From positions 1-53,667 of the forward strand of contig JBDRPD010000099.1 in the NCBI GenBank assembly GCA_043827405.1: 53,667 bases of DNA, written 5' to 3'. Shown one piece after another: positions 20,475-41,418 of the stretch (position 1 is the stretch's first letter; every line of letters starts with the position of its first letter). The stretch comes from Elusimicrobiota bacterium (GTDB lineage: Bacteria > Elusimicrobiota > Elusimicrobia > UBA1565). The notes beneath the pieces are model-generated. The model had not been told where the DNA came from, ran no database searches, and was given only the letters and a program-made list of their open reading frames with translations. Both the position numbers and the translations under genes were made by a program.

Positions 20475-20545
20475 AGTGGTCGCACTGTTTTGCTGCTGAC
20501 GGATTTCTTTGAAGCTGTATTCTCTTAGCCATCGGAGACATAGAC

Positions 20546-21959: not shown

Positions 21960-22061
21960 CGGCCGCTAATATCCTTCCCGGCGACACTAGTTTCTGTTTC
22001 CATTTCCCGACTCTATTACCCCCCAACCAACTCAGAAACAAAACAATCCAACGATTCTCAG

Positions 22062-22505: not shown

Positions 22506-22597
22506 GTTAATGGGTCTCCTGTGTTTAGGGTATGGTTGATGTCCATAGCCCTGGAAGTCTAACACGGGAGGCCCTTCGCTTTCATCATGTTATCTGC
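22506..22597 (-). ncRNA. Structured IS110 upstream non-coding region (bridge/seekRNA-like candidate)
   Basis: Outer stem gggtctcctgtgtt (22512-22525) / aacacgggaggccc (22561-22574) and inner stem agggtatgg / ccatagccct, separated by an asymmetric internal loop. Confidence 0.4.
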
Positions 22598-23275
22598 GGC
22601 GAGCGGCTTCCGCCCTGCCCAACTGCGCTGGCCGGAACGAAAGCTCGACCAGAAGTGGCTCAGGTTTCGCTTCAAGCATCGGATGTCATATTTTCAGGAG
22701 ATCGTGGGAGTTGGTAGGAAAATGGACGGCTCGATTGCATTATAGAGTGAGGGAGCTTGAGCATTTGTATGGAAAAAGTGGGGACAAAATGGACGGCTCA
22801 AACGCATATGGGGGTGAGGGGAGTGCGCTCTAAAATTACTCGTTACTTTGGCCGGGGAAATTTTTTCTCAACATGGGAAAATGCCTTTAGGTCCCGGCAG
22901 AAACCGCATGTGCCGGCGCCTGAAAATCGGGATAAAGTGTCAACGATTTGGGGTGCTCGCCGGAATAGTGTAGGGGGGTATGCTGGCGGGAATCTGCGGA
23001 GAAGCGTCAACGATTCGGGGTCTTCGATCGAATGATTAAGTAGGAACTCTGGGAGGAAATGTGTGCGGAATCGGCGTGCTCGATTGAATGATTAAGTGAG
23101 AGCTTAAGGAATTGGGAACAACAGCGAAACGGAGACGGACGCGGCGGCGGATGTCCCCTTTTTGCGGGGTCGTGGGAATATTAAATGAGGGGTGACTTTG
23201 CGAAAAACCTGCCAGCAATTTGGGCGCATCGAGCGGATGATTATGCGGGGAACCCACCGATGAATAACCTTCTTG

Positions 23276-23299
23276 CCCCCTCTAACGTGTTAGAGGGGG
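23276..23299. repeat. Inverted repeat with perfect 11-bp arms
   Basis: CCCCCTCTAAC-GT-GTTAGAGGGGG in the long non-coding stretch upstream of xis. Confidence 0.8.
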
Positions 23300-23570
23300 G
23301 TGTGAATAACTGCGGGTACGGAATTGCGTCGATTACTCCTGCCGATATGCGCCCGCCTCGCCACCGGCTGCGCCGGTTTCGCCTCCCGACCCCGCTCCCC
23401 CAACCACAAGTGGTAAGTGGGAACGGGGTCGGGAGGAGGGCGGGCAAGGGCAGGAGTAAAGGACAGAAAAAGGGAGGTAAAGAGATCAGAAAACAACGGA
23501 AGGAACAACGGAGGAAACGGCAACCACACAGCAGAAAAACCAACAACTTAACTGCACAGGAAGGAGGTCC

Positions 23571-23816
23571 ATGGAAGCGGCAAAACATGACCTGAACCGG
23601 CCTAATCAGGGACGCTACCTCAACGAAAAAGAGCTCGGAACCTACGTCCGGATTTCACCGGCCAGCATCCGCAGACTTGTGCGGAACCAATCCATACCCT
23701 ACATCGTATTACCATTAGGAGAGGGCTGCCGGCGGACGATCCGCTTCAAGACTTCGGCCATCGACAAGTGGCTCGAGGCGCTTGAGCGTAAGCCTTTGAG
23801 GAAGGCGAGGGGATAA
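23571..23816 (+). CDS. Excisionase-like helix-turn-helix protein
   Basis: RBS AGGAGG; YLNEKELGTYVRISPASIRRLV...IPY...IRF...IDKWL; lies directly upstream of the integrase. Confidence 0.85.
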   Translation: MEAAKHDLNRPNQGRYLNEKELGTYVRISPASIRRLVRNQSIPYIVLPLGEGCRRTIRFKTSAIDKWLEALERKPLRKARG

Positions 23817-23836
23817 CATATAATCAGGGGGAAGAC

Positions 23837-24874
23837 ATGGCGCTATTCAAGAGACCGAGCTCACAGTACTGGTACTACTCGCTGCAGATAAACGGCAAGC
23901 GGGTGTTCAAGTCCACCCGCGAAACCGACCGCAAGCGGGCCAAGCTGGTATGGATCGACAGCCTGCGCCGCTTCCGCGACCGCGAGCTCCACGGCGCTCC
24001 TTCCCGGATCACTTTGGGCGAGATGATAGAGCTCTATATGCGCGACCACAGCGCCCGTTTGAAGGCCCGGACGCACGAGACCGACCGCAGCCTCAAGAAC
24101 CGGATTCTGCGCGGCTTCAGCCCCAATATCAAGCTGAGAAGCCTCACCCCGCACCATATCGAGCGCTACATCGCCAAGCGCTCCGGCCGCGTCAAGCCCG
24201 GCACGATCAACCGCGAACTGACCTTCCTGCAGGGGCTCTTCACCAAGGCCGTGCGCTGGGGATTCGCCGCGACCAATCCCCTTACCCTGATCAAGAAGCT
24301 CAAGGAAGAGCGCAAGCCCGAGCGCTTTCTGGCCCCGGCCCAAAAGGACAAGCTCCTGGCTTCCTGCCGCGACAGCCTAAAACCCCTGGTCGGCTTCGCC
24401 ATGAAGACCGGCATGCGGATGTCGGAGATAATCGAGCTCGAGTGGAAGAACGTCAACCTCGATAAGAACCGCGTCTACGCGGTCGGAACCAAGGCCCACA
24501 AGACCCGCGTGATCCCGATCTCCCCGGCCACCCGGGAGACGCTAAAGCGCCTGCCCAAGCGGAGCGACCGCGTCTTCACTCAGGATAGCGGCAAGCCCTG
24601 GATCGTGGCAACGCTCGGCAAGTGGTTCGTCCGCGCCGCCCGCAAGGCCCGGCTGCCCCAAGATTTCACGTTCCACGATTTACGGCACACCTTCGCCCGG
24701 GATCTCCTAGACCGCGGAGTAGATATCTACACCGTATCCAGGCTTTTGGGGCACAGTTCCCTGCGCGTGACCGAGAGATACCTCTCGCATAACATGCCCG
24801 GGGCCGAGGAGGCTATTGGCAAGTTGGACCAAAGTGTTGTAAAAAGTGTTGTCAGTCGTTATTCGGCGGCCTAG
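23837..24874 (+). CDS. Tyrosine recombinase / phage-type integrase
   Basis: N-terminal arm-binding-like region; TGMRMSE, TKAHK, FHDLRHTFA, LGHSS, TERY (R-K-H-R-H-Y intact). Confidence 0.97.
   Translation: MALFKRPSSQYWYYSLQINGKRVFKSTRETDRKRAKLVWIDSLRRFRDRELHGAPSRITLGEMIELYMRDHSARLKARTHETDRSLKNRILRGFSPNIKLRSLTPHHIERYIAKRSGRVKPGTINRELTFLQGLFTKAVRWGFAATNPLTLIKKLKEERKPERFLAPAQKDKLLASCRDSLKPLVGFAMKTGMRMSEIIELEWKNVNLDKNRVYAVGTKAHKTRVIPISPATRETLKRLPKRSDRVFTQDSGKPWIVATLGKWFVRAARKARLPQDFTFHDLRHTFARDLLDRGVDIYTVSRLLGHSSLRVTERYLSHNMPGAEEAIGKLDQSVVKSVVSRYSAA
24832..24852 (+). repeat. Putative integrase arm-type site, right end (inside the int 3' end)
   Basis: Identical 21-mer to 16450-16470, 41 bp before the att core. 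Confidence 0.75.
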
Positions 24875-24897
24875 AAACCGCCGGATTGTCGTCGATA

Positions 24898-24987
24898 GGT
24901 GAGGTGCGTGAGCGGCTTAAACGGACGGTTTGCTAAACCGTTGTACGGGGTAAACCCGTACCGAGGGTTCGAATCCCTCCCTCACCG
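24898..24987 (+). tRNA. tRNA-Ser(GCT)
   Basis: Acceptor GGTGAGG/CCTCACC, anticodon arm ACGGT-TTGCTAA-ACCGT, long variable arm, T-arm GAGGG-TTCGAAT-CCCTC, discriminator G; CCA not encoded. Confidence 0.96.
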
Positions 24988-25739: not shown

Positions 25740-28700
25740 TTAGTGGGCGACGGGCAGGGTGAGGTAGGGGAAAGCCGTGCGGGACATTATCTGGCGCAGC
25801 GGCGGGCCGACGGCGGTCAGCGCCTTGACCGTCTCGCGCCGGGCCTTCTCGGCGACGGTCTGGCCCTCGAGCCGCGCGACTTCATCGGCGAGCTGCTGCA
25901 GCGAGGTCCCGCCGGCCGCCGGCTTGGCGAGCTCCCGGCGCAGGTGGTCGGCGCGGTCCGAGTACTGCCGCGAGCCGAGCCGGACCTGGGTCTCGGCGCG
26001 CACGCTGTCGACTTCGATATGGCCCGGATCGGCTTCCCAGGTGCCGGTGCCGCCGGCGCCCACCAGGCCGCCCATCTCGTTGAGAACCCGGTCGACGGCC
26101 TGCGAGCCGGTGAGGTGGTCGACCTTGGCGTTGGGATAGGTGCCGGCGCGGCCGCGGACCGTCTCGACGAAGGTCTGCTTGACGCCGCCGTTGAAGGCGC
26201 CGAGGATGCGGCCCCGGGCGTCCTCGATGTCCTCGCCGGCGTAGCGCACGTAGCGCAGCAGGCTGCCCGTGCCGAAGTGGATCTTCCGGCGCTCGGTCTG
26301 CGGGCCCTTCTCATGCTGCCACTCACCGACCCGGGTGGCCGAATCGTTCTCCACGGCATCCGGGAACTGGCTCGGATCCATGTAGCGGTCCACCTTGTCG
26401 GGCAGCAGCTCGAAGATATCGAGGAAGTGCACGATCTGCCCCATGGCGCCGCGGCGCACGGTGGCGCCGCCGTCGGTGCGGCGCATGTAGACGCGGCCGA
26501 TATAGCCGTGCTGGTTCGGGTCGCGCCCGGTGATCAGCTCGATCGGCGTCTTGATGATGCCGCGCGGCGTCTCAAAGACGATATTCGCCCAGTTCCAGGG
26601 CATGTAGGCCCAGCGGCCGACAGCGCCGAGCTCGTCGGCCGCTTCGTCCAGGCGCTGCTGCAGGATCTTGCGGCCCAGCAGGACGGGCAGCTTGGTCTCC
26701 GGGTCGATGTAGCGCTTGAGCCGGTAGGTGGGGGACATCTTGTAGTCTTCCTGCTTCCACACCCGGCCGGACATGTCCTCGATCCACCACTTCTCCGAGA
26801 GCTTCTTGAGCTCCTGGAGGTCCTGGAAGATGCGCACCAGCGCGCCCTTGGAGTCGAGCTCGATGGCGTGGACTTCACCGCTGACCCAGCGCGCCGCGGC
26901 GGCGCCGAGGCCGCGGGAGAAATCGGACTTGCGGTCGCGGATCTCGGCGAGCGTGCCGTCGGACGCCAGGCCCCATTCGAGATCCGTGGTGAGGTGGAAG
27001 CTCCACTTGAGCCGCGGGTCCGCCGCGGTCTCTTCGTCCTGCTCTTCCTTAACCTGTCCTTTCTTGAGCTTGGCGGCTGCGGCGGCGAGCTCTTTGCGCA
27101 TCGCCTGGTACTCGGCCTTGCTCATGTAGACCGCCGCGATGCCGCCGTCCTCGTCGATCGCGAAGGCGTAGGCTTCCAGCTTGAGATTGATCCAGCCCAG
27201 CTGCCGCGCGCGCTGCGCCTTGTCGTCGGCCTCGCGGATCAGGCTCTTGATGCCCTTGGCGCCGGTCCGGATCCGGCTGAAGTTCGCGGCCTCGGGGGAG
27301 CGCTCCAGAGCTTCCAGGCTGGCATAGAGGCCGAAGGCGGCGCCGCCCTCGGGCGCGGCGACCACGATCAGCTCGGAGGGGGCTTTCTTCTGCGCCGCGA
27401 TCGGGTGGATGGCGCGGCGCAGGCCGGTCGCCGGATCGGCCTCGCGGGAGAAGTAGAGCACGCGTCCCTCGGCTTCCAGGCGGCGCAGCTCTTCGAGGTC
27501 GAGCTTCTTGCCGGGCCGTCCGTCGGCGCCGACCATGACGAACTCGGCCTGCTTGAGCACGCTCTCGACTTCCTGTCCGGCGCGGGCCCGCTGCAGCTTT
27601 TCGCGCGCCTCGCTCAGCTCCTCGTCGAGCGCGTCCTGCCCGGCGCGCAGCTCGCTGGCGCCCAGCTGCTCGAGCTCCTTGACGGTCTGCGGCTGCTTGC
27701 CGGCATGCTCCGCCGGCAGGAGCCAGCGCCGGCCGTCGACGCGGACGATCCGCTGCGCCCGCTCAAAACCCTTGACGTCATCGCGCGTAAGCCAGTTCTC
27801 CACGCTCTCGTCCGCCTTGACGACGGCGTAGAGCGAGCGGATTTTGCGCGGATTCTCGAGCCAGCGCTTCTTCAGGTTTTCCAGATAGGCCAGCCGCTGG
27901 GCCACCGGCAGCTCCGCCGAGCGGCCGGCCTGCTGGTACTGCAGGGCCCGCAGATGCGCCTGCTCAACGGCGATCAGGGCGTCGACCGCGAGCATCGCGC
28001 GGCCCTGCTTAAGGAGCGTGCTGCGGCGCTCGATGCTGCGGCGCAGCGGGAACAGCTCGTTGAGGACCCCCGCGGCGCTCGGGTCCTGGCGCACCGCCTG
28101 CAGCGTGTAGGCGCGAACCACGGCCTGGTCGAACTCAATAACGGACCGCAGGTAGCTGTCGAGCGCCTTGTCCTTAAGGACGAAATCCTCGGGACGGGCC
28201 TGCGCGTCCAGGTAGCTCTCGAGCAGACCCTGGCGCAAGTCGTCCATGCGGCCGCGCAGCGTCTCGAGACCGGCGAAGATCTCTTCGACGGCGGGGGTCA
28301 GCTCGACGCTGCCCCAGCGCGCCTGGCGCATGCCGGCGAGCAGCTGCTGCTGCTGGGCGATCTGCTCCGCGGAGAGGGTGGTGCGGCCGCGCACGTCTTC
28401 GAGCAGGAAGCCGTTGAGCTGGCCCCACGGGGCGCTGCCCGAGCGCCGCGCCTGGTCGAGCGCCCGGTAGACCATGCCCTCCAGCTTCAGACGCTTGCCT
28501 TCGACGTCCAGCCGGGTGAGCAGGTCCAGCTTCTTGGCGGCGTCGATCTCCGAATGGTAGCGCGTCGCCTGCGCGGCTTCGAGCACCGTGCGGTAGACGG
28601 CGGCCTGCTCGGCGATCGCCGCGCGGTCATGCGCGGAAACGACGCCTTTGCCGTCGAACATGCCGTCGAGCGCCGAGGCGAAGTCGCCGTCGGCCAGCCG

Positions 28701-31700
28701 CTGCGAGATGTAGCGGGCCACATCGTCGAGCGTCCTGGAGCCGGGAGCCTCATCCGCGGCGCGGCTGCGGCGCGGCCGGAACGGGCCGGCGGCGGACCGG
28801 GACGGCTGGCCGAGGGCTTTGAGCTCGGTAACGAGATGGATGAAGTCGATGCGCAGGCCCGAGAGGGTGTCGATGAAATCCTCCCAGGCGGCGATGACGC
28901 CGCGCTGGGCCGAGGCGAGCTCTTCGCTGGTGGACTGTCCGCGCTCGAAGAGGGCGAGCATGCCGCTGAGATTGTCCTGCGCGGCGCGCAAGCGCGCCTG
29001 CTGCGCTTCGAGCAGCCGGGTCTTATCGATGACCGAGGCCATGAGCGCGTGCAGCTTGAGCGCCAGCCCCTTCAGGCGATCCTGCGACTGGAGCTCCTGG
29101 CGCAGGGCGTCTTCCAGTATCCCGCGCAGGCTGCTCTCGATCTTGCTCGGGTCCGGGGCCTCGAGGAAGGCGCCGGAGACCCAGCGTCCCCGGAACATGC
29201 CGATGGCGCCGACCGGCGTGAAGCCCTTGAAGCTCATCTTCTCGGCGATCAGGTTGGACTTGAGCTGGACCAGCAGGTCGCCGGCGCCCGAGAGCTCCTC
29301 GGGCAGCCCGCTGGTGAACAGGGAAGCGCGCAGCGCCTCGATATTGGTCTCCTCGATCTCGCGCAGGAAAACGCGGGCGGTCTCCGCCGGGCTGACCGCT
29401 TCGTCGCGCGGGATGAGCGGCAAAATCGCGTCGACCTGGATGTCGCGGCGCAGTCCGAGATGCGCCGCCACCTCGGAAAGGTCGCGGCTCACGCCGCGCT
29501 CGAGCTCCTCGAGCCACAGGCGGTTGACCGCGCCGCGGCCCTCGCCGCGCGCCCAGCTCAGCAGGCCGGCGTTGAGGCGCAGCCGCGCGAGCAGCACGCG
29601 CGCCCGGCCGCTCGCCTGGGCGATCGCCGCGCGGTGGATGTGATCCGCCTTCTCCTTCTGCAGCCCCGCCAGCGCCAGCAGAGCTTCGGGCGGCGTGGTC
29701 CGGCTCTTGAGCCGCACTTCGACCCAGCCCTCAATGAACTGCTTGCCGATCGGGTTCTTGCCGATCGACATGCGCGAATCGAAGAAGCGGATAAAGCCGT
29801 CGGCCGTCACCCGCTGGCCGCTGGCCGGAGCGCCGATCATACCCGACGCCCCGCCGATACCCGAGGAAGGCGTCTCGGCCTGGAACGCCGCGATCAGCCG
29901 GTTCTGCAGCTCGGCGAAGGTGGCGGGCAGGCCGGCGGCGGGCGCGGCGCCGGCGGCGTCGAAGCCGAACATCGCCATCTGCGCCCGCAGGCCGAACACG
30001 CGGGTTCTAAGGTTGTTGGCCTCGATGCGGGAGTTTACGTCGGAGCGGTACTCGAGCTCGTCGAGCCGCCGCGCCGACTGCTCCAGCTCGAAGTTGAGCC
30101 GCGCGCGCAGGGCGGGAAGCTCGCGCTCGAAGGCGCGCAGGTCGCGTTCCGCCTCCAGGGTCTGGTGCCGCGCCAGCGCTACCAGCTCCGGCGAGGCGTC
30201 GCCCGATCCCGAAAGCGCCGCGACCAGCCGTCCCAGCGCCCGCCCGATCAGGGAAATGGGCTCCACCCGGATGTCCTGCACCCGCAGGTTCTTGTCGACG
30301 ATCGTCTCCACGCTGCGGGCGACTGCGACCCGCTCGCGCAGGACGCCGAGCCGCGCGGCGAGGGGCGAGGCGGCGCCGAAGCGCTCGAGCATCTCGGCGA
30401 GGACCTCCGCGGGGTCCTTTTGCATATCCAGCTGCGCTCCCGCCGGCCGGCCGAGCAGGTAGTTGACGGTGACCAGGAGCTGATTCTCCTGACCGATCAA
30501 GGTGTTGATCTGGCTGCGGATGCGGGTCAAGGCATGCTGGTCCGCGGCCGAGCCGTTGGCCGCCGCGCGCTCGCGGGCGGGCAGAACTTCATTGCGCAGC
30601 ATGGCGAGCGTGTTCTGGACGCCGCGGTAGCTGGTATAGGCGGCGAAGAACTGGAAAGCGAGGTCCGCATCGAGGTTCTGCTTGAGATGCTCGAGCATGG
30701 CCGACTCGCCGCCGCGCCGGCCGCTCTGCAGCTCCTTAAGCTCTTCGGGCTTCATGCGCATCCCGACGATGGGGAAGATGCCGAGCCCGGTCAGGCCGAG
30801 CGCCGGCAGCAGGCTCACGCCGTCCGCGGTCACATTGGCGCCGACGCTGACGTCGACGGAAACCTTCTCCATGCGCTGTCCCGCCGCGCGCAGCAGCTCC
30901 GCCACCGCCTCGGAGCGCTTGGCCAGCGACTCCAAGGAATGGCTGTTGGCGAGCGCGGAGCGCATCGCGCCGTCGAGATCGGTGACGGGGGCGGCGGGGG
31001 CGGAGCCGGGATGCCCGCGGCGCAGGTCGATCTCGCCGCCCTGGCGGTAGTCCAGCGCCGCCCAGGCCCGGCTGAGCGCCTCGCGGGCGCGGGCGTCGAA
31101 GAGCCGCGTGATGTTCCAGTGCCAGCGCTCGAAGGCGGTCCACAGCGCGTCCTGGCCGGAAAGCCCGTTGCGGTACTTCTGAATCTCTTTGCCCAGCGCC
31201 CGCGCGGCCTCGGGCGCGGCCTCGCGCAGCATCTCGACCTGGGACTTGTAGGACGCGGCTTCCTGCAGCTCCTTGGCGGCCCGCAGCTGGAAGCCGCCGT
31301 AGACGTCCTTCATGTCGCTGATGATCGCCTCGGACTCCAGGGTCATCGCCTTCTCGTGCAGCTTGCTGTTGGGGTCGTAGATCGGGAGGCGGATGGAAAT
31401 TCCCGCGCCCAGGACCTGGTTGCCCAGCAGATCGTGGAGCTGGGCGCCGAAGGACAAGGTCATCTGCTCGATCCACGGGATCCAGTCCATAAGGTTGAAG
31501 GACTGCTCCGGCTGCGGGAGCTCCGAGCGGTCGAGCTTCTTGAGCAGCAGGCTCAGACGCAGCGGCCGGTCGAGGAGCTTTCCGAGAATTCCCAGCAGGG
31601 CGTCCATATCCTGCGGGTTGACGTCGTTGAAGGGCGGCATGGCGTCGGGCGAGCGGCCGGTCAGCAGGTTGTACTGCAGCTGCGCCTGGCGGTAGCGCGC

Positions 31701-34700
31701 CTCGGCTTCGATCATGAGCGCCCGGCCCTTCTTCGCCGTCACCTCGTCCTGCGCGTTGGCGGTCATAAACAGCGCCAGCTCGCGCTCCCAGCGCGACTGC
31801 AGGATCTCGGCGACCGCCTCCTGCCAGTTCTTGGTCAGCTCGAGCAGCCGCACCTGCAGGCGCAGGCCGCCGGCGTAGAGCGAGGAAATCTTCTTGGCCA
31901 CCAGCGCCTTCTGCGTCTTGGTCAGGGTCAGCTCGGTGCTGGTACCGACCTGGAAGCCGCCGCCCGCCACCCGGTCCGCCGTGTCCGTGCCGACGGGGTT
32001 GGTCACAAAGCCCACCATCGCCCGCGTCCGGGTATTATCGAGGACGGCGCCGGCGCGGCGCAGCTCGGCGATATCGCGCGTCAGGCGGCCGATCTCGAGG
32101 CTGAGCACCCGGCGGCCCACATCCCCTTCGAACACACGCTGCAGCTCCTTGATCAGCGGCGTGTCGTACTCTTCCGCCTGGAAGAACTTGCTGAGGTCCT
32201 CGTTGAACTCCTCGAGGGTGCGGCCGCCGAGCAGGTCCTCGGCCGTCTGTCCCGCCACCGAGCGCCACAGCTCGCCGAGCGTGAAGACGGTGTTGACGCC
32301 GAGGGTGAGCCGGTTGTTGATGCCGACGTAGCGGCTGCCCCATGAGGCGAAGGCCTCGGTGTTGGGGCCGAGCTTCTTGCGCATCTCGACCAGATAGCTC
32401 TTGGCGTCGCCCAGGAACTTGCCCTGGCCCGAAAGCACCAAGCCCTGGTTGGGCAGCTCGAAGCTGGTGCGCAGCGAGCCGCTGTTGTACTTGGTCCCCA
32501 GCTCGGCGGAGCCCCCGACCTCGGTGCGCACCGGGATGCCGCCGACCTTGAAGGCGAAGCCCTTCAGGATCGAGGCGCCGATGGTCTGCTGGCTGATGTC
32601 GTCGGTCCCGCTGACGTTGGTGCCGAAGAAGTCCACCTCAAAGCTCTCGGCGGTCTTGAGCGCCTTCTGCAGATCGAGCTGGGTGCCGACCTTTTCGCGG
32701 CGGAAGCGCTTCTGGTCGCCGCGGGCGTCGATCACGTAGTCCCGGTCGAACGTCGGATCGTAGCCGGTGAAGTCGAGGTTGACCTTCTGCAGGAAGCGCC
32801 GGGGATCCTTGGCGAAGAGGATGGACTCCTCGGCGGTGAGCTTCATGATCTCGCTGAACTTGATCGAGGTCTTGAAGTTTCCGCCGTAGTAGTGGGGCTT
32901 GTTGAGCGGATCGTTGAGCGCGAAGTCGCCGAAGCCCGTGGCCCCGAAGTAGAGCTTGTCGCCGGCCAGCATCACGGCGAAGTCCTCGAACACCATCATG
33001 CGCGACTCGGCCACCTGCGAACCGGCGTTGAGCTCCTCGGGGATGTCCTGAATGAACTTATGGAAGGTGATGTCGAGGTAGTTGACCCAGTTTTTGCCCT
33101 GCAGGGACTCGACGCGCACCGTGACGCCCTGGTCGCCGAACGGCGCATTGCCGTCGCTGGGCGGGCTGGCGAAGCGGTGGCCGACCACGCTGACGTTGTT
33201 GTCGCCCAGCCGCAGGGCATTGCCCAAGGTGACCGAGCTCTCGGTCTCCAGGCCGCCCGGGGTGGAGAAGCGGCTGCTGTAAACCAGGTAGAAGCCGTCC
33301 GGGTCATCGCCCAGCTCGAGCATGCGCGAGTTGGGCAGCAGCTGCGCCAGCGCCATCGGGTTCTTGAGCAGCTCCTCGCGCAGGCGGTACATGTCCCGCG
33401 CCGAAGACTCGCCCTCGAAGGAGCCGAAGAGCATGCCCAGAAAGTTCGAGAACTCCGACTTCTTGATGATCAAGGACTGCGGCCCGCGCGACGAATTGGC
33501 CAGCCAGGCCGGCCCGCCGAGGCCGATCTGCTCGATGCGGTCGGCCAGGACCGGCGACAGGTCGGCGAGGTCGATGCCTTCGATGCTCTCGCCGAGCGCG
33601 CTCTGCTCGCGCTCGAGAGCCTGCAGCGTCTCCTGCAGGCGGGTCGCGGCGGAGTCAAAGCTCTTCTTGTTCTTCTGGTAGTTGATGTTGGACTCCAGGA
33701 CGCCCCGCGTTTTGTCCTGGATCGCCGACAGGTTGTCCGCCACCCGCCGCAGCGCGCTCTCGTGCGGATCGTTGAGCTGCTTGAGCCAGCCCAGCACCGT
33801 CTTTTTCTGATCGAGCAGGGGATCGAGCGTCTTCTGCAGCTCTTCCTTGTACTTGTTCGCGGCCTGCACCTCGGCGTCCAGCGCGTCGGCGCTCTTGCCG
33901 TAAATATCCTCGAGCGAGCTGTAGTAGCCCCGGATGCTCTCGACGGTATCGAAGGACCCGGTATCCCAGCCGATCTTCTGGTTGAACAGCGTGGCGCCTT
34001 CGCCCGCGGTGTCGCGCACGATCGTGAAGGCGGTGATCTTGCGCGCAAACAGCGCCGCGGGCGTCTCGCCGCGCGAAGCGACGTAGGCCGCGTCGGCGTC
34101 GAGGTCGGCGAAGATGCGGTCGATGGCCGCTTCACCCTTGTCGAGGAACTTCTCGAAGATCGGAATCTGCTCCTCAAGAGACTCCTGCGACGCGTCGGCC
34201 ACCCCGTCGGTGAACAGGTAGCGCGCCACCACCTCGGTCAAGGAGTCGGTATTGGAGGCCGCGCTGCTCGGCACCAGCCGCTTGATGGCCTCGAGCGCGG
34301 TCACCGCCAGCTGCTGCTGGTCCGACAGCGTCACGTCGGGCTGCTCGCCGGTGGGGATGCCCTCGCCGCCGCCGATGTCCATGCCGCCTTCGCTGCCCGC
34401 GGCGAGCGCCGCGTCGGCGATGCGCTTGAGCGCGTCCGCCAGGTTGGGGATGCGATTGGCGTCGACGATCGCCGTCAGGCGGTCGGCGCTCGCCTGGTCC
34501 GTCGCGACGTCGGTCGGAATGCGGAAGCGCTCCACCAGCTTATGGCTGCCGCCGGTCTTGCCGTCGATATCCGTGAGGATGGTATTGATCTCGGCGCCCA
34601 GGCGGTTGATCTGCTCCGCCCGCCGCGCGGTCTCGGCGCGGTATTCCTTGATGCGCTTGACCAGCGAGAAGGGCATCATTTCGCCGTAGACTTCCTCCAC

Positions 34701-37700
34701 GTCGGCGCCGCTGGGGTCGCGGCGGCGGCGGATATCGTCCTTGAAGTCCACGATGAGTTGGCGGTATTCGTTGTACTTGGTGCGCTGCTCCTCGATCTTG
34801 GCGCGGGCGCCGGCGGCGTCGCCTTTGGCCGCGCCCTGCGAGGCCAGGCTCCACGGGATGGTTTCCTCATAAGACTCGAGGACCTTGCGGTAGACATTGG
34901 CCTTTTCCTCGTAGAGCGTGGCCATGCTGTCGCCCGCGGCGTTCGGCGCGACGGAGTCGATCTGCTCCTGCTGGAAAGGGATGAGACGATCCTGCAGGAA
35001 GCTCTTCATGCGCTCCAGCATGGGCTTCATCTCGCCGCTGACCAGGCGGCGCTTGCGGTCGATAAGGCTCTGCGCCTGCGCGGCCGGGAAGCCGGCCTTG
35101 ACGTAGGCGACGTCTTCCTCGATGTCGCGGATCACCGCGTCGACGGCCGCCGTCACGTCCTCGAAGCGGCTGCGCGCCTCGGGCAGGATGCCCTTGACCG
35201 CCTCGTCGATAATCTCGGCCGTCTTTTCGGCCTGGACCCAGCGGACGACCGCGTCGCCCATGAAGGGCAGCAGCCGGGCGATGGCCAGCATCTCGATCTT
35301 CGCCAGCGTCCCCTCATCGGTGTCCGGGAAGTTGAGGGTCATCAGCCGGTCGGGATAATCGGGGAGCAGGGTCCGCAGCTCCGCGCTGCCGCGCCCGCCC
35401 AGGGGGGGGAGGCTGCCGCCGCCGCTCTGCGCGATGACGCGCGCCCGGGCGTCGATATCGGCGGCGAAGCGCTGGGCGTCCTTCTGCGCGGCCGCCGCCT
35501 TGTCCTGCTCTTCCCGCCGGTACACGGTATATGACTCCGGCACCGAATCGCCGAAATCGTCAAGCACGCGCCTGGAGCCGCCGCCCAGCCCCGCCACGAT
35601 GCTGTCGAGCTGCTTCTGGTACTCGGCCCGCTCTTCCCGCCAGAAGGTGCGGCGCTCGTCGAGAATTCTGAGCGCGGTCGCCTCATCGGGGTTGGAAACG
35701 CTAACCGCCGGGATGCCGGGAACCGCGATGACGAGCACGCCGGCGAACTCGGTCGGCACCGTATCGAACTGCTTTTCGCCGTCGAGAACCTTCTGCAGAT
35801 ACTCCTCGACCCGGTCCACCTCGGTGCGCAGGCGGGTCAGCGAGAGCTTGGAGACCGAGCCGTCGTCCTCGGGATAGCCGTGCTCCCGGTATTCCTGGAG
35901 CTTCGGCAGCAGCGCCAGGCGCCGCGCGTATTCGGTCAGGGCGTCGCCGCTCTGTCCCCGATCGCGCGCGTTGATCAGCTCGAGGAGCCCCGGCACATCC
36001 GTGCGGTAGGCCCGCAAGGCCTCGACGAACTTGCCGGCCTGCTCGCCGAGCTTGGTGAACAGGCCCTCGTTCTCCTTGTTGTCGGCGATCTTCTTGCGCA
36101 CGTCCTGCTCCCACTCGTCGCCGCGCGCGCTGTTCTTCTTCGCGTCTTCGAGCGCCCGGCGGCTGCGCTCCCGCTGGGCGTCGATATCCTTAAGCTTGCC
36201 GTCGACGAGGGCCTTCATCCCCTCGATCGCGTTTTGCGCCGCCTGAATGACATTGAGGCTGTAGGACAGGTCCATGACCATGGCCAGGCGGGAGAAGTTC
36301 TTGCGGAACTCCGTCATGTCCCGCTCGTCGCGGCGGCGGCGCAGAGACGCGTCGCGCATGCGGTCGGCCATGGCCAGCAGCTGGCCGGCGGCTTCGCGCT
36401 CCGCCAGCTCGGCCTGGGCCTTGGCTTTGAGGCGCTCGATACGCTCCGTGTGCTCGGCCAGCGCGCGCTCCCGCGGGGTTCCCGCCAGCGGCGGCTTGCG
36501 CTCAGGGCCCGCCGAGCCGCCGTCGCGGCCCGTCAGCAGATCCTGCAGGCCGCGCTGCAGACGCTCGAGCCGGGCGCGTTCGATCTCGTTGGTCTCGGTA
36601 TAGCCCAAAGAGGAGTTGGCGGGCCCGCCCGCGATCCCGTCGTACATGTCCAGAAGGTCCTTGAGCGCCCCGAGCTCCTTTTCGTCGCCCTTATTAAGCA
36701 GATCCGCGCGCTGCGAGAGCTTGCGCAGCAGGTAGAGCCGGTCGCGATTGCGCTGCAGCGCGGCGAGGTCGCTGGAAAGCTGCTGCTCGAGCCGCTCGCG
36801 GCTGCTGTCGTCGCTGCCGCGCAGGCCGGCCAGCGCCTGCTCGCCGCGGTGGATCGCGAGCTCACGGCTGAGCTCGTTTTCGCGGCTGTGGGTGGCGGCG
36901 AGCTCCCGTTGAAACAAGCCCGCCCCGCCCGCCGGGGCGGCCTGAGGAAGGACCGCCGCGGCGGACGCTTTAAAGGGGGACTGCGCGCCGCTCGTCTGCG
37001 CGCGGTCCGCGCGCGGCTGGAGAACCTGCTCCGCGCGGGTCCGCACAGCGCGCGCTTGCGACTCCAAAGTCTCCGCCGTGGGTTCCGCCGTCAGGCCCAG
37101 ATGCTCCCGGAGCTGCGGCAGCTCCGCCCGCGCCGCGGCCTCCGCATCCCGGGAGCCTTGCGCAAACTGCAGGTGGCGGCTGATCCAGCCCGCGAGCTCG
37201 CGGTCCGAGCCCTGCGGCACGCCCAGCGTCCGCAGCTTGCTGGCCTGAAAGCGCAGCCAGGAGGGCTGCGGGGAGCCGGCGGCCAGACCGGCGGCCAGCG
37301 CGGCATAGGAGTAGCCCCGAAGGACCTGGTGCAGCTCGCGGCCCGTGCGGGTCAAAGTCTCCCGCTCGGCAGCCGCGGCGGGATCCTTGGCCAGCCGCAT
37401 CCAGCTGGTACGGACCCCGGCGGCCTGCTTCCAAAGCTCGGACTCCATGACGCCGCCCTGCTCTGCGGCGGTACGGGAGGCCTCCAGGTACGGCATCAGC
37501 TCCGCCGCCACCGTATTGGGGCCTACCGCCCGTCCGGCGCTGATCCGGGGCGCCTGGAATGACGGCTGGGAGACGTTCACCGCGGCCGCGGGAAGGCCGC
37601 CGTCGAATACTCCGGGAGCGGCCTGGAGGCGCGAGACGCCGCGGGCCAGCTTGCCCGCCGTGCCCGGCACCGCGGCCGTCGCCGCCGCGCCCGGATAGGC

Positions 37701-37823
37701 GGGCGCCGCGGCGGCGCCGAAAGCGCGGACCGCGGCGAAAGCCGGTGCTTGAGCGGAAAGGGCGAAGGAAAGAGCTAGGGCGAGGGGCTGGCGCAAGCTA
37801 TTTTTCTGCAGGCGTTTTAGCAT
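25740..37823 (-). CDS. Giant 4027 aa exported protein: coiled coil, beta-barrel-like domain, multiple TolC/OEP-like repeats, unknown C-terminal region
   Basis: Signal peptide ending APAFA; beta-strand-rich block at ~32270-33300; TolC-like motifs between ~28800 and 32150. The CDS is secure; the domain calls are by eye. Confidence 0.85.
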   Translation of the reverse strand: MLKRLQKNSLRQPLALALSFALSAQAPAFAAVRAFGAAAAPAYPGAAATAAVPGTAGKLARGVSRLQAAPGVFDGGLPAAAVNVSQPSFQAPRISAGRAVGPNTVAAELMPYLEASRTAAEQGGVMESELWKQAAGVRTSWMRLAKDPAAAAERETLTRTGRELHQVLRGYSYAALAAGLAAGSPQPSWLRFQASKLRTLGVPQGSDRELAGWISRHLQFAQGSRDAEAAARAELPQLREHLGLTAEPTAETLESQARAVRTRAEQVLQPRADRAQTSGAQSPFKASAAAVLPQAAPAGGAGLFQRELAATHSRENELSRELAIHRGEQALAGLRGSDDSSRERLEQQLSSDLAALQRNRDRLYLLRKLSQRADLLNKGDEKELGALKDLLDMYDGIAGGPANSSLGYTETNEIERARLERLQRGLQDLLTGRDGGSAGPERKPPLAGTPRERALAEHTERIERLKAKAQAELAEREAAGQLLAMADRMRDASLRRRRDERDMTEFRKNFSRLAMVMDLSYSLNVIQAAQNAIEGMKALVDGKLKDIDAQRERSRRALEDAKKNSARGDEWEQDVRKKIADNKENEGLFTKLGEQAGKFVEALRAYRTDVPGLLELINARDRGQSGDALTEYARRLALLPKLQEYREHGYPEDDGSVSKLSLTRLRTEVDRVEEYLQKVLDGEKQFDTVPTEFAGVLVIAVPGIPAVSVSNPDEATALRILDERRTFWREERAEYQKQLDSIVAGLGGGSRRVLDDFGDSVPESYTVYRREEQDKAAAAQKDAQRFAADIDARARVIAQSGGGSLPPLGGRGSAELRTLLPDYPDRLMTLNFPDTDEGTLAKIEMLAIARLLPFMGDAVVRWVQAEKTAEIIDEAVKGILPEARSRFEDVTAAVDAVIRDIEEDVAYVKAGFPAAQAQSLIDRKRRLVSGEMKPMLERMKSFLQDRLIPFQQEQIDSVAPNAAGDSMATLYEEKANVYRKVLESYEETIPWSLASQGAAKGDAAGARAKIEEQRTKYNEYRQLIVDFKDDIRRRRDPSGADVEEVYGEMMPFSLVKRIKEYRAETARRAEQINRLGAEINTILTDIDGKTGGSHKLVERFRIPTDVATDQASADRLTAIVDANRIPNLADALKRIADAALAAGSEGGMDIGGGEGIPTGEQPDVTLSDQQQLAVTALEAIKRLVPSSAASNTDSLTEVVARYLFTDGVADASQESLEEQIPIFEKFLDKGEAAIDRIFADLDADAAYVASRGETPAALFARKITAFTIVRDTAGEGATLFNQKIGWDTGSFDTVESIRGYYSSLEDIYGKSADALDAEVQAANKYKEELQKTLDPLLDQKKTVLGWLKQLNDPHESALRRVADNLSAIQDKTRGVLESNINYQKNKKSFDSAATRLQETLQALEREQSALGESIEGIDLADLSPVLADRIEQIGLGGPAWLANSSRGPQSLIIKKSEFSNFLGMLFGSFEGESSARDMYRLREELLKNPMALAQLLPNSRMLELGDDPDGFYLVYSSRFSTPGGLETESSVTLGNALRLGDNNVSVVGHRFASPPSDGNAPFGDQGVTVRVESLQGKNWVNYLDITFHKFIQDIPEELNAGSQVAESRMMVFEDFAVMLAGDKLYFGATGFGDFALNDPLNKPHYYGGNFKTSIKFSEIMKLTAEESILFAKDPRRFLQKVNLDFTGYDPTFDRDYVIDARGDQKRFRREKVGTQLDLQKALKTAESFEVDFFGTNVSGTDDISQQTIGASILKGFAFKVGGIPVRTEVGGSAELGTKYNSGSLRTSFELPNQGLVLSGQGKFLGDAKSYLVEMRKKLGPNTEAFASWGSRYVGINNRLTLGVNTVFTLGELWRSVAGQTAEDLLGGRTLEEFNEDLSKFFQAEEYDTPLIKELQRVFEGDVGRRVLSLEIGRLTRDIAELRRAGAVLDNTRTRAMVGFVTNPVGTDTADRVAGGGFQVGTSTELTLTKTQKALVAKKISSLYAGGLRLQVRLLELTKNWQEAVAEILQSRWERELALFMTANAQDEVTAKKGRALMIEAEARYRQAQLQYNLLTGRSPDAMPPFNDVNPQDMDALLGILGKLLDRPLRLSLLLKKLDRSELPQPEQSFNLMDWIPWIEQMTLSFGAQLHDLLGNQVLGAGISIRLPIYDPNSKLHEKAMTLESEAIISDMKDVYGGFQLRAAKELQEAASYKSQVEMLREAAPEAARALGKEIQKYRNGLSGQDALWTAFERWHWNITRLFDARAREALSRAWAALDYRQGGEIDLRRGHPGSAPAAPVTDLDGAMRSALANSHSLESLAKRSEAVAELLRAAGQRMEKVSVDVSVGANVTADGVSLLPALGLTGLGIFPIVGMRMKPEELKELQSGRRGGESAMLEHLKQNLDADLAFQFFAAYTSYRGVQNTLAMLRNEVLPARERAAANGSAADQHALTRIRSQINTLIGQENQLLVTVNYLLGRPAGAQLDMQKDPAEVLAEMLERFGAASPLAARLGVLRERVAVARSVETIVDKNLRVQDIRVEPISLIGRALGRLVAALSGSGDASPELVALARHQTLEAERDLRAFERELPALRARLNFELEQSARRLDELEYRSDVNSRIEANNLRTRVFGLRAQMAMFGFDAAGAAPAAGLPATFAELQNRLIAAFQAETPSSGIGGASGMIGAPASGQRVTADGFIRFFDSRMSIGKNPIGKQFIEGWVEVRLKSRTTPPEALLALAGLQKEKADHIHRAAIAQASGRARVLLARLRLNAGLLSWARGEGRGAVNRLWLEELERGVSRDLSEVAAHLGLRRDIQVDAILPLIPRDEAVSPAETARVFLREIEETNIEALRASLFTSGLPEELSGAGDLLVQLKSNLIAEKMSFKGFTPVGAIGMFRGRWVSGAFLEAPDPSKIESSLRGILEDALRQELQSQDRLKGLALKLHALMASVIDKTRLLEAQQARLRAAQDNLSGMLALFERGQSTSEELASAQRGVIAAWEDFIDTLSGLRIDFIHLVTELKALGQPSRSAAGPFRPRRSRAADEAPGSRTLDDVARYISQRLADGDFASALDGMFDGKGVVSAHDRAAIAEQAAVYRTVLEAAQATRYHSEIDAAKKLDLLTRLDVEGKRLKLEGMVYRALDQARRSGSAPWGQLNGFLLEDVRGRTTLSAEQIAQQQQLLAGMRQARWGSVELTPAVEEIFAGLETLRGRMDDLRQGLLESYLDAQARPEDFVLKDKALDSYLRSVIEFDQAVVRAYTLQAVRQDPSAAGVLNELFPLRRSIERRSTLLKQGRAMLAVDALIAVEQAHLRALQYQQAGRSAELPVAQRLAYLENLKKRWLENPRKIRSLYAVVKADESVENWLTRDDVKGFERAQRIVRVDGRRWLLPAEHAGKQPQTVKELEQLGASELRAGQDALDEELSEAREKLQRARAGQEVESVLKQAEFVMVGADGRPGKKLDLEELRRLEAEGRVLYFSREADPATGLRRAIHPIAAQKKAPSELIVVAAPEGGAAFGLYASLEALERSPEAANFSRIRTGAKGIKSLIREADDKAQRARQLGWINLKLEAYAFAIDEDGGIAAVYMSKAEYQAMRKELAAAAAKLKKGQVKEEQDEETAADPRLKWSFHLTTDLEWGLASDGTLAEIRDRKSDFSRGLGAAAARWVSGEVHAIELDSKGALVRIFQDLQELKKLSEKWWIEDMSGRVWKQEDYKMSPTYRLKRYIDPETKLPVLLGRKILQQRLDEAADELGAVGRWAYMPWNWANIVFETPRGIIKTPIELITGRDPNQHGYIGRVYMRRTDGGATVRRGAMGQIVHFLDIFELLPDKVDRYMDPSQFPDAVENDSATRVGEWQHEKGPQTERRKIHFGTGSLLRYVRYAGEDIEDARGRILGAFNGGVKQTFVETVRGRAGTYPNAKVDHLTGSQAVDRVLNEMGGLVGAGGTGTWEADPGHIEVDSVRAETQVRLGSRQYSDRADHLRRELAKPAAGGTSLQQLADEVARLEGQTVAEKARRETVKALTAVGPPLRQIMSRTAFPYLTLPVAH

Positions 37824-38063: not shown

Positions 38064-39647
38064 CTAGGCGGCAGGCCGGAGCGCCTCAAGGCGGGCCGCA
38101 AAAACGTCTAGCGACTTCATTCGTGCGGCCGGATCCGCTTCCATAGCCTCGGCCAGAAGCGGCCCCATGCCGGGAGGAAGATTCTCCGATTTCAGGTCAT
38201 CATCCGGCGGGGCGCCGGTGAAGAGGAAATGAGTACAGGCGCTCGCCGAGTATACGTCATGTACGGCGCCGGCCTTGCGCACATCGGCTTCAGGCGGAAG
38301 ATACTCATTGGCTTTAAACTCGTTGAGGATACGCGATATGCCGAAGTCCAGCAGCTTCACATGGCCGGAAGAGGAGATATGAATATTATCCGGCGACAGC
38401 GTACCGTGGTACAAGCCGGCCTGGTGAGCAGCGCCGAGAGCCGCGCATACCGCGTCCATAATCGCAAAGGCCTGTGCGGGAGGAATTAAGCCGAGCTCCT
38501 TAACCAGCTCCTGCGCCGTCCGGCCCCGGAGCGATTCCCGCACAAGAAACAGGCCCTGCGGCAGATCAAGGACCTCGTAGATATCCACGATATTCGGATG
38601 GCTCAGCGCCGCGATCCGCTGCGCGGTCTCCACATAGGCCTGGCTGACTTTGACGGGCGCCGCCATCGATTCCTTCAGCACTTTCTGAATAATGACCGCG
38701 CGTTCAAGCGAGTGATCCGTCGCATGCCACAACTGACTGCCGCTGCCGTATTCGATAATATCGCCGCACTCATACTTGCCGGCGATGTATTCCTCACCGC
38801 CGATATCCACGCCCATGGCGCCTTTCTTCGCACCGGCCTCCGGCTGCGGCGCCGGGCGCGCCGCGGCAGCCCTGCGGCGCCACAGGAAAGACGTCAGCAG
38901 GAACCCTCCGATTCCCACCACCAAGCCGCCGAGCACGAACGGCAGCGGAGAGCCGCCCGCCTCCTCCCCGGACCGCGCGCTGGGCAAAGACCAGGCCACC
39001 GAACCGCTGGCGTCGAACAGGCTCCTGCCCGTCAGCAGCAGAGCCGCAGAGTCCGCGGCCTGTTTTAGCCGCCCCATGCGCAGCTGCGCTCCGGCGATTA
39101 CCTTGTACGCCCGCCGGTCGCCGGAATCCCTCCTAAGCGCCTCATGGGCGGCCTCCACGGCGGTGCGGTAGTTTCCGAGCTCCAAGAGGATTTGCGCCTT
39201 GGTAAGAAAGCCTCCCGCGATATCCGGATTAATCGCCAGCGCCTTCTCCGCCGAGTAAAGAGCATCATTGAGCCGGCCGCGCGCCAGCAGCTGCCGCGAA
39301 TCCTTGATCAGCTCGGCGGCCAAATCGCGAAAGCGGCGCGGCTGGCTTTCGCCTTTGGCCCGATCGCCGAGATAAATGACGGCCGTTTTGATCGCCCGCC
39401 GCTCCGCCTGGAGCAGCTCGGCCCGCAGCCGGCCGATCTCGACTTGCCGCTCGGCACGCGCTTCACCCTTTGTCGCCGCCAGCTCATCCTCGGCGTCCGC
39501 CAGCCGCATCTCGATATCGATATAGCGCTCGACCGAGCGGTCGAATTGCTGATACGTGGGATCGACGGCGGCTGCCGCCGCCGTCGCGAGCAGCAGCATG
39601 ATCAGCGGCAGGCACGCCGAACCCGGACGCCGCGGGAAATGCTTCAT
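38064..39647 (-). CDS. TPR-TM-Hanks-type pseudokinase
   Basis: Start overlaps the upstream stop (ATGA); signal peptide, TPRs, TM helix; EYGSGS, VIIQK and HGTLSPDN replace the canonical motifs; DFG is kept. Confidence 0.85.
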   Translation of the reverse strand: MKHFPRRPGSACLPLIMLLLATAAAAAVDPTYQQFDRSVERYIDIEMRLADAEDELAATKGEARAERQVEIGRLRAELLQAERRAIKTAVIYLGDRAKGESQPRRFRDLAAELIKDSRQLLARGRLNDALYSAEKALAINPDIAGGFLTKAQILLELGNYRTAVEAAHEALRRDSGDRRAYKVIAGAQLRMGRLKQAADSAALLLTGRSLFDASGSVAWSLPSARSGEEAGGSPLPFVLGGLVVGIGGFLLTSFLWRRRAAAARPAPQPEAGAKKGAMGVDIGGEEYIAGKYECGDIIEYGSGSQLWHATDHSLERAVIIQKVLKESMAAPVKVSQAYVETAQRIAALSHPNIVDIYEVLDLPQGLFLVRESLRGRTAQELVKELGLIPPAQAFAIMDAVCAALGAAHQAGLYHGTLSPDNIHISSSGHVKLLDFGISRILNEFKANEYLPPEADVRKAGAVHDVYSASACTHFLFTGAPPDDDLKSENLPPGMGPLLAEAMEADPAARMKSLDVFAARLEALRPAA

Positions 39648-41410
39648 GCGCTCTTGCTGCCCAAAGTCTCCAGCCGCTGCGCGAACTCCCGGGCCGACTG
39701 CACGCGGGTTTTCTGGTTGGGATCGAGGGTCTCGAATATCAGAGCGTCCACCGTCTCGGGCAGGTCGGGGAGATACTGGCGCACCCGCGGGTATCTCCGC
39801 TGCAGCTTGTCCTGCTCGTCCCCGGAATCGAAGGGCAGGCGCCCGGTGAGCATCTCGTAGCAGCAAACACCCAGCGTATAGATGTCGGTCAGCGTCGAGA
39901 CCACGCCCTTCTGGGCCTCGGGCGGCATATACTGTGGGGTGCCGACGATGGTCCGCGTCTTCGCCATCAAGATGCCTTCAGGACCCGGGGCGTTCAGCTG
40001 TGCGGCGTCCGCGGTCTGAATGCGCTCGTCGATGCGGCGGGCGATGCCGAAATCCATAACTTTAACGAAACCCTGCTCGGTGACCATGATATTGGCCGGC
40101 TTGAGATCGCGATGGACGAAGCCCCGTCCGTGCGCGAAATCCAGCGCGTCGCATACCGGGCGCAGGATTTTCCATACGCGCCGCAGGGAGATACGCTTCT
40201 CTTCCGCCAGGATATGCTGCACGGTCTTGCCCATGGCGAGCTCGAACACCAGATAAATACCCGACGGCAAATCCAGAATCTCATAGATGCCTATAATATG
40301 GGGATGATCCAGCGAGGCGACCGTTCGCGCCTCTTTCAAATAGTACGTTCTCGCGGTGGAACCCAGCTCGCCGAGCTCCTGCGTCATCTTCTTGATCGCG
40401 ACCTTGCGGTTAAGCGTGACGTCAACCGCCTCCCAAACGTGGCCCATCCCGCCCTTGCCGATCACCCGCGACAGATCATACTTCCCGCCGAGCCGCTTCT
40501 CGTCTTCCGCTGCGGCGACCGGCACCGGCGGCGCGGCGGCGGGCTCCTCGCGCGCTACGCCGAACTGCAGATAGCCTACCACCGCGGCGCACAGCAGCAG
40601 GAACAGCACCACAGTCAGCAGCGCGCCTTTGGGAAATCCTCGACGGCTCGGCGGCGGCGGGCGGCGTTCGTTCTGCGGGTAGAATAAACGTTTACCGGCC
40701 TGCAGCCGCTTCAGGTAGCTGTCGAACTGCTCCTCATCGATGCGGCTCGCGGTCTCGATGGCGGCGCTCTTCTCACGAGCATGCATCGCCCGGTCCTCCC
40801 GGGCCTGCACCCGCAGCTCCAGCCCCTCGTGCGCGAAGGCCGTGACGGCGTACAGCATGGCCAGCGCCCGGCGCTCCTTAGGCGTAATCTGGTCGCTCGT
40901 TTTTTCCCGCATCCCCTGCACCGCGCTTTGGATGGCGCCGGGGTAGTCCTCCTGCTCGAGCAAAGCGAAGGCGAGGTTCTGATACGCCTCCAGGCTCTTG
41001 CGGTTGAGAGCGACCGCCTTGCGCGCCGACGCCTCGGCGCCGGTGAAGTCGCGCAGCAGAATCTGCGCGTTCGCCTTCCTGTTGTAGAGGCCGTACTGAT
41101 CAGGGAGAATCTCGAGCGCGCGATTATAGTTGATCAACGCCTGATGCGTCGCCGCCGCGACGAGATGCTGCTCGGCGATCTTGAAGTATTCCTCCGCGTG
41201 CCGGACATCCTCCAGCGATACCTGCTTGGCGGCGAAGGGATCTCCGACGGGAGGGATAGCGTTTTGCTCACGCTGCTCGCCGACGGTCCGCTGCAGGGAT
41301 GGAGATTCAAAGGTCTGGCTTCGCGCCGGCAGCGCGGAACAAAGAAAAAGCGCCGTCGATATCGCGGCGCACGCCTGTCGCAGGCGGAGGGGGGGGGAGG
41401 TGTCGAGCAT
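39644..41410 (-). CDS. TPR-TM-Ser/Thr protein kinase
   Basis: Signal peptide, TPRs, TM helix, GKGGMG, VAIKK, HRDLKPAN, DFG, GTPQYMPPE. Confidence 0.95.
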   Translation of the reverse strand: MLDTSPPLRLRQACAAISTALFLCSALPARSQTFESPSLQRTVGEQREQNAIPPVGDPFAAKQVSLEDVRHAEEYFKIAEQHLVAAATHQALINYNRALEILPDQYGLYNRKANAQILLRDFTGAEASARKAVALNRKSLEAYQNLAFALLEQEDYPGAIQSAVQGMREKTSDQITPKERRALAMLYAVTAFAHEGLELRVQAREDRAMHAREKSAAIETASRIDEEQFDSYLKRLQAGKRLFYPQNERRPPPPSRRGFPKGALLTVVLFLLLCAAVVGYLQFGVAREEPAAAPPVPVAAAEDEKRLGGKYDLSRVIGKGGMGHVWEAVDVTLNRKVAIKKMTQELGELGSTARTYYLKEARTVASLDHPHIIGIYEILDLPSGIYLVFELAMGKTVQHILAEEKRISLRRVWKILRPVCDALDFAHGRGFVHRDLKPANIMVTEQGFVKVMDFGIARRIDERIQTADAAQLNAPGPEGILMAKTRTIVGTPQYMPPEAQKGVVSTLTDIYTLGVCCYEMLTGRLPFDSGDEQDKLQRRYPRVRQYLPDLPETVDALIFETLDPNQKTRVQSAREFAQRLETLGSKSA

Positions 41411-41418
41411 GGAGTTAA

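Follow-up and report, generated by a model that had tools for sequence, protein, structure and literature searches.

A giant protein of a groundwater Elusimicrobiota bacterium with a predicted porin-like barrel and three TolC protomer equivalents in one chain

The window analysed here is a stretch of 53,667 nucleotides from a groundwater Elusimicrobiota bacterium (assembly GCA_043827405.1, contig JBDRPD010000099.1, positions 1 to 53,667, forward strand). On its minus strand lies a giant gene (window 25740-37823; 4,027 codons plus stop), and the middle of its product carries three diverged equivalents of the TolC protomer, fused one after the other. Our best explanation, to which we give a probability of about 0.7 and for which all evidence is computational, is that the product is a Sec-exported envelope protein with a porin-like beta-barrel and a fused, pseudo-threefold TolC duct in one chain. 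The homology of the thirds, their fold, the conservation of the module, and a predicted contact between the last unit and the first are supported by computation.

TolC and the other outer-membrane factors (OMF) assemble from three identical subunits into one duct of 12 strands and 12 helices. To our knowledge, TolC-family ducts are always built from three separate chains, and this is also true of every TolC-family PDB entry returned here. The three protomer equivalents of the giant are non-identical and lie in one chain, and in this they depart from the three identical subunits of TolC. A full-text search of the literature, confined to main texts, turned up neither a natural single-chain or fused TolC nor a description of these Elusimicrobia giants; in the portions of two giant-protein papers covered here (10.1101/2023.11.21.568195 and PMC11573180), Elusimicrobia are mentioned only in passing.

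The product opens with a Sec-type signal peptide (amino acids [aa] 1-31, window 37731..37823, minus strand) that ends AFA|AV, the cleavage site being judged by eye. Its hydropathy peak is at aa 14-32, and the family consensus starts similarly. Elsewhere the hydropathy of the whole product reveals only short hydrophobic stretches, at aa 691 and at aa 2335, the latter within a predicted beta-hairpin, and no inner-membrane anchor was found by this means. There is no cysteine among the 4,027 residues. Two predicted outer-membrane modules follow one another in the chain, a beta-barrel and then the TolC-like module. Homologs are labelled “hypothetical” in database records because the Pfam OEP model scores at or below its cut-off on the giant.

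All units of the TolC-like module are read on the minus strand. Unit 1 holds repeats 1 and 2 (aa 1856-2267, window 31023..32258), unit 2 holds repeats 3 and 4 (aa 2268-2630, window 29934..31022), and unit 3 holds repeats 5 and 6 (aa 2631-3015, window 28779..29933). A preliminary description of this DNA had placed about three TolC-like protomers at 28800-32150; our unit borders give 28779-32258. All eight TolC-like motifs that it quoted were located in the 4,027-aa product within ~40 bases of where they had been put; they start at aa 2046, 2139, 2216, 2282, 2392, 2453, 2784, and 2958 (window 31688, 31409, 31178, 30980, 30650, 30467, 29474, and 28952). The YRNGL tip motif of unit 1 occupies aa 2217-2221, and three of its residues, R2218, N2219, and L2221, vary little or not at all across the family. 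Unit 3 also carries an OEP-type tip motif, LFERGQSTSEELASAQ.

Clear evidence for three protomers comes from profile-profile comparison. The same genome holds 15 OEP matches in eight open reading frames (ORFs) of ordinary TolC type, and five canonical TolC genes from it were used to build a TolC profile. Against this profile, hhalign gives unit 1 a probability of 93% (P 2.9e-7; TolC 22-418 on unit positions 17-390), unit 2 a probability of 88% (P 3.3e-6), and unit 3 a probability of 77% (P 2.1e-5; TolC 42-434 on unit positions 4-381), with 319-352 aligned columns in each case. Each third thus aligns full-length with canonical TolC, and the possibility that only a single protomer would be detected did not materialize. 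The uncut segment yields four alignments along its length. Units 1 and 2 also resemble each other (73% probability, P 3e-5).

Specificity was assessed by scanning the whole giant in 19 overlapping 400-aa windows of the family alignment. The TolC profile responds, at 24-91% probability, in all six windows between aa 1801 and 3200, and gives at most 1.2% in the other 13, so that the suggested likeness to TolC stands above chance. A control profile made from three adaptor (MFP) genes of the same genome stays at or below 0.5% in all 19 windows. In the opposite direction, the family profile was searched against 1.84 billion representatives and matched 105 proteins, nearly all of them giants or giant fragments; one of the 105, at E 1.2e-4, is a canonical OEP protein of 422 aa, which itself scores 1e-58 with Pfam OEP.

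The predicted structure agrees with this assignment. AlphaFold2 (AF2) was run on aa 1856-3045 (the segment, 1,190 aa) with a 58-sequence alignment (A2), and returned a mean predicted local distance difference test score (pLDDT) of 79.1 and a predicted template modelling score (pTM) of 0.76. In the model a beta-hairpin, a long helix of 47-69 residues, and a return helix follow one another six times. On the minus strand, and numbered along the segment, the hairpins of unit 1 are placed by AF2 at 76-113 (window 31920-32033) and 265-294 (window 31377-31466), those of unit 2 at 463-502 (window 30753-30872; 17+17 residues) and, uncertainly, ~657-690 (window 30189-30290), and those of unit 3 at 818-849 (window 29712-29807) and 1014-1034 (window 29157-29219). 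Family-averaged hydrophobicity alternates strongly in hairpins 1-3 and moderately in hairpin 5.

When the model was submitted to Foldseek, ranks 1-39 were all TolC-family channels, at E 1.9e-5 to 3e-3 and each over about one-third of the model; low-probability matches begin at rank 40. The channels include TolC, OprM, OprN, CusC, SilC, ST50, CmeC, VceC, MtrE, and TOprJ1. As had been proposed as a check, then, the predicted structure was compared with TolC, and it matches TolC-family outer-membrane factors only. Structural alignment (VIA) places unit 2 (model 426-767) on 5azp_B 41-441 with Z 14.9, a root-mean-square deviation (rmsd) of 4.2 Å, and 316 aligned residues, and unit 1 (model 33-405) on CusC 44-438 with Z 12.0. 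In the model, units 1 and 2 each span a whole protomer in canonical register.

A pTM of 0.76 over 1,190 residues indicates that, within the prediction, the three thirds are confidently placed relative to one another. In addition, units 1 and 3, which are not adjacent in the sequence, were folded as a pair; the prediction scored 0.62, the best control reaching 0.34. Of 157 solved complexes, 116 reach the mark used for this score, as do 2 of 215 mismatched pairs. Across the runs, contact agreement was at least 82% and partner pLDDT at least 59. At the predicted interface, unit 3 contributes its final long helix (segment 1049-1096) together with the return helix, and unit 1 contributes its first up-helices (47-58 and 171-204); we take this to be the inter-protomer, ring-closing seam of TolC trimers.

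Several results weigh against this reading, and they are of different kinds. The first concerns sequence detection. Pfam OEP (PF02321; gathering cut-off 22 bits) finds no match on the whole 4,027-aa protein. It reaches 22.1 bits at aa 2139-2250 when a 400-aa piece is offered; aa 2902-2985 in unit 3 (19-21 bits) and a 1,117-aa piece (21 bits) both stay under the cut-off, and of 40 homologous segments, four give a match at E ≤ 0.01 and no segment scores above the cut-off. Neither phmmer with the segment nor hmmsearch with the family profile A2 found a TolC-family chain in the PDB (E ≥ 0.28). Units 1 and 3, and units 2 and 3, have no likeness detectable by hhalign, and comparison of the whole segment with itself gives a weak repeat signal (19.5% probability). 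The proposed check by Pfam and profile comparison therefore came out divided: hhalign finds the three protomers, but the Pfam model stays at or below its cut-off. An NCBIfam scan of the whole giant returned nothing useful, and one distant giant (P0116) scores 28.7 bits with Pfam OEP.

The second kind concerns the model. Hairpin 4 is predicted with low confidence (pLDDT <50 at segment 667-686), and hydrophobicity alternates poorly in hairpins 4 and 6; the six repeats proposed at the outset are borne out by the predicted secondary structure, but the fourth hairpin is poorly predicted. Unit 3 has no separate VIA structural match, and what backs it is its sequence profile and its secondary-structure pattern. 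The confident contacts between units 1 and 3 involve helices only, with no strands, and the pair prediction may have passed by way of likeness to solved TolC trimers. Closure of the three units into a ring is likely on these predictions, as read from the pTM and the pair score and not from inspection of the coordinates. Hence, of the suggestion that a single gene encodes a pseudo-trimeric channel, the mutual placement of the thirds, the TolC-only fold matches, and the unit 1-unit 3 pairing speak in favor, but barrel closure is inferred and was not observed.

The third kind concerns partners. OMF proteins work with a periplasmic adaptor and an inner-membrane pump, which are often encoded nearby. 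Among the 15 commonest neighbor clusters of 60 loci there is no MFP, ABC, RND, or MFS gene, and none lies within the window, where it should be said that a partner may be encoded elsewhere.

The upstream beta-barrel was not part of the preliminary description. It covers aa ~1517-1850 (window 32274..33275, minus strand), is preceded by a small alpha/beta subdomain (aa 1430-1516, window 33276-33536, minus strand), and is the most conserved part of the giant. An AF2 model of aa 1430-1870, built on a 72-sequence alignment (A3), has a pLDDT of 74.2, a pTM of 0.58, and ~19 long antiparallel strands. All 49 Foldseek ranks listed for it are membrane beta-barrel proteins. VIA gives Z 14-16.5 at an rmsd of 4-5 Å over 230-260 residues, with FhaC, CdiB, OccK, Wzi, AlgE, and Tom40 among the matches. 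ESM features are nearest to outer-membrane barrel and porin clusters (0.90-0.91), which is a weak pointer. An hmmsearch with A3 against PDB sequences returned chance matches only (E ≥ 0.28). As modelled, aa 1517-1850 form the closed antiparallel meander barrel of solved outer-membrane barrels. This would be the same single-chain meander barrel, of 16-19 strands, as in the OccK/OprD porins, the Omp85-type FhaC and CdiB, Wzi, and AlgE; it differs from these in having no sequence similarity to them and no POTRA domain, and in being fused to a TolC-like module.

The barrel and the TolC-like module are flanked by long arms. The N-terminal arm (aa 32-1429, window 33537..37730, minus strand) has no Pfam family over the cut-off and contains a tandem duplication of a ~290-aa domain, at aa 703-968 (window 34920-35717) and aa 992-1301 (window 33921-34850), again on the minus strand; hhalign of the arm against itself gives 98% probability and P 3e-14. 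The C-terminal arm (aa 3016-4027, window 25743..28778, minus strand) opens, after unit 3, with a linker rich in Pro, Arg, and Ser; its core, aa ~3700-3900 (window 26124-26726), is strongly conserved. Like the N-terminal arm, the C-terminal one has no Pfam family over the cut-off. The ESM features of the core come closest to those of phage hypothetical proteins and LPD38 (0.93-0.94), which gives no more than a weak lead. Pfam on the whole giant and on nine further N- and C-terminal pieces found nothing over the cut-off. The idea that the arms are fused adaptors was considered and is without sequence support, the MFP profile giving the low values noted above.

It is also important to look at how widely this architecture occurs. 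We collected 33 full-length homologs of 3,314-5,617 aa, with 33-56% identity in the module; all full-length homologs examined have the same architecture, as the preliminary description had asked to see. Across the 33, conservation runs from aa ~450 to ~3950, the first ~450 aa being poorly conserved. About 100 giant genes retain the 1,188-position module in full, and in at least 28 representatives of at least 3,357 aa it is unbroken. The entire module is also matched by four distant giants at 98.6-99.5% probability, which makes it an old, conserved unit. In a distant relative of 4,593 aa (P0127) the module stands at the very N-terminus (residues 7-954, 92% probability) and not in the middle, which suggests that it moves from one giant architecture to another.

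In a sample of 201 Elusimicrobiota genomes, the full module is confined to one order, often as two paralogs. There are 16 full-length matches in 12 genomes, namely the source genome and all 11 sampled members of three families (f1-f3) of the same order. In another family of the same class (f8), two genomes (G094 and G128) hold distant giant look-alikes with ORFs of 3,785 and 3,817 aa. In the other 14 genomes with a match, the matches are weak and fall in ORFs 210-530 aa long, most of them about as long as an ordinary TolC; those of 460-530 aa have the canonical TolC size, judged by length and not by a Pfam scan. Among species-representative genomes, 104 stretches encode relatives, and counts were made on the 80 loci kept: by title, 74 are Elusimicrobia or Elusimicrobiota, 2 are Candidatus Endomicrobium trichonymphae, and 4 are given only as “bacterium.” Several of these genomes carry two loci, and the genome studied here has a second paralog, a 5,460-aa open frame on another contig. 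The two paralog groups differ in the length of the N-terminal arm by over 1,000 aa.

Taken together with the structure, our preferred explanation would work as follows. The giant would be exported by Sec, with the two outer-membrane modules in the middle of the chain. The three protomer equivalents would fold onto each other and form one pseudo-threefold TolC-type duct, consisting of a small outer-membrane beta-barrel (10 confident and 2 uncertain strands) and a helical tunnel of ~100 Å reaching into the periplasm, so that one polypeptide would do the job of three TolC subunits. With symmetry lost, each third would be free to diverge. The N-arm (1,400 aa) and the C-arm (1,000 aa) would be periplasmic, because a TolC protomer has its N- and C-terminus at the periplasmic equatorial belt, and there they may replace adaptor proteins or reach an inner-membrane partner.

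Compared with known TolC/OMF proteins (Escherichia coli TolC 1ek9, OprM, OprN, CusC, SilC, MtrE, CmeC, and VceC), the model of the giant has the same two-repeat protomer fold, in which every repeat runs from a beta-hairpin through a long down-helix into a return helix. It shares with them OEP-type tip motifs, long helices of up to 69 residues (~100 Å), and a homology detectable by profile-profile comparison. Whereas TolC/OMF proteins are homotrimers, the giant would be an asymmetric pseudo-trimer of three diverged protomers in one chain. Unlike them, it carries its module inside a 4,027-aa protein beside a second beta-barrel, has no linked adaptor or pump genes, and is scored by the Pfam model only at or below the cut-off.

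Other explanations have to be considered alongside this one. One is self-export, in which the giant would be autotransporter-like and the fused duct or the barrel would carry the protein's own N- or C-arm to the surface; we regard this as unlikely, if worth keeping in mind. The order of signal peptide, long variable N-arm, and beta-barrel resembles type V secretion (autotransporters and two-partner secretion), where one chain likewise joins a signal peptide, a long non-membrane region, and a barrel. The variation of the N-arm by more than 1,000 aa between paralog groups would suit self-export, as would the Pro/Arg/Ser-rich linker after unit 3, the lack of cysteine, and the lack of a linked pump or adaptor, and FhaC and CdiB are among the best structural matches of the barrel. 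However, nothing puts either arm outside the cell. Classical autotransporter barrels have 12 strands and the barrel here has 16-19; Pfam found no passenger-type domain, and there are no POTRA domains. The giant also differs from type V systems in what follows the barrel, namely a TolC-like duct and another arm of 1,000 aa, and self-export leaves the need for two outer-membrane modules unexplained. A broader version, in which the giant is a one-polypeptide envelope machine of an as yet undescribed sort with duct and barrel side by side in the outer membrane, the arms as its adaptor layer, and perhaps its own arm threaded out as in a TolC-type autotransporter, seems to us similarly doubtful.

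Less probable again is that the TolC fold serves as a structural strut, a rigid periplasm-spanning rod that ties the outer membrane to deeper layers and is no transport channel. Such a role would fit the lack of linked transporter genes and the long flanks, which are not enzyme-like, and the genome already has its eight ordinary TolC-type genes, two of which adjoin adaptor genes elsewhere in the genome. Yet the near-invariant tip residues R2218, N2219, and L2221 suggest that the periplasmic entrance matters, and a hollow six-repeat duct would make a costly strut.

A third alternative is that the chain does not close on itself and that chains swap units or oligomerise, giving the wider or multi-chain pore raised in the preliminary description. 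Closure was not directly observed and hairpin 4 is uncertain, but a pTM of 0.76 for 1,190 aa speaks for a confident relative placement of the thirds, the pair prediction joins unit 3 to unit 1, and six repeats make exactly one TolC ring; we hold this to be improbable. That a coiled-coil-rich stretch merely looks like TolC by chance is the least credible of all, since the weak or absent Pfam and HMMER signals on which it could lean are contradicted by a profile-profile signal specific against 13 other windows and the MFP profile, by a fold search giving only TolC-family chains, and by a family profile that found a canonical OEP protein among 1.84 billion representatives.

The neighborhood of the gene offers further context. 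In the long paralog group, a 301-aa gene without a Pfam match lies directly upstream on the same strand at 16 loci; its cluster is present at 22 of the 60 loci (e.g., L034:1524-2426) and is not found beside the giant of the window. The loci of the short paralog group, which includes this giant, have an aldo/keto reductase, TPR-kinases, and a large TPR protein in common with the window. Three tandem genes for proteins with TPR and Ser/Thr protein kinase domains (window 38064-43965, minus strand) lie immediately upstream of the giant in the same orientation, and similar TPR-kinases are found next to a few related giants, as a cluster of four proteins at three loci. Among nine sequencing runs listed with the giant gene there is no RNA run; the DNA runs are groundwater and aquatic metagenomes.

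On the other side of the gene, window ~16000-24900 has a G+C content of 51-54%, the flanking 2-kilobase blocks having 61-70%. It encodes a phage-type integrase (23837-24874, plus strand), an IS110-type transposase (22062-22565, minus strand), and four ORFs without a family (16997-21718, plus strand), and probably represents a mobile element that inserted immediately downstream of the giant gene. A second giant ORF (P0002; window 3-9851, minus strand) of at least 3,283 aa extends beyond the edge of the window. Its start resembles a signal peptide, and the ORF contains six PQPDAAKVK-type repeats, a hydrophobic Gly-rich stretch, and a long terminal Gly run but has no Pfam match; when compared with the TolC-bearing giant as a possible relative, it proved unrelated. 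The window also contains ankyrin repeats fused to a caspase-like peptidase C14 domain (11661-13052, plus strand) and a TamA/TamB-like gene pair (49065-53049, plus strand), in which a 628-aa ORF with a weak ShlB/FhaC-type match below the cut-off (E 1.2e-3) is followed by a 692-aa AsmA/YhdP/DUF748-like ORF.

If our preferred explanation is true, this is a natural fused pseudo-trimer, which would mean that the TolC fold tolerates triplication and fusion, and that the fusion continues the duplication that made the two-repeat protomer. Once symmetry is lost, the three faces of the duct could specialise. A monomeric TolC scaffold would also be available for structural and engineering work. For the envelope biology of a poorly known phylum, it poses the question of what a pump-less duct, together with a second barrel and 2,400 residues of arms, may transport or hold together.

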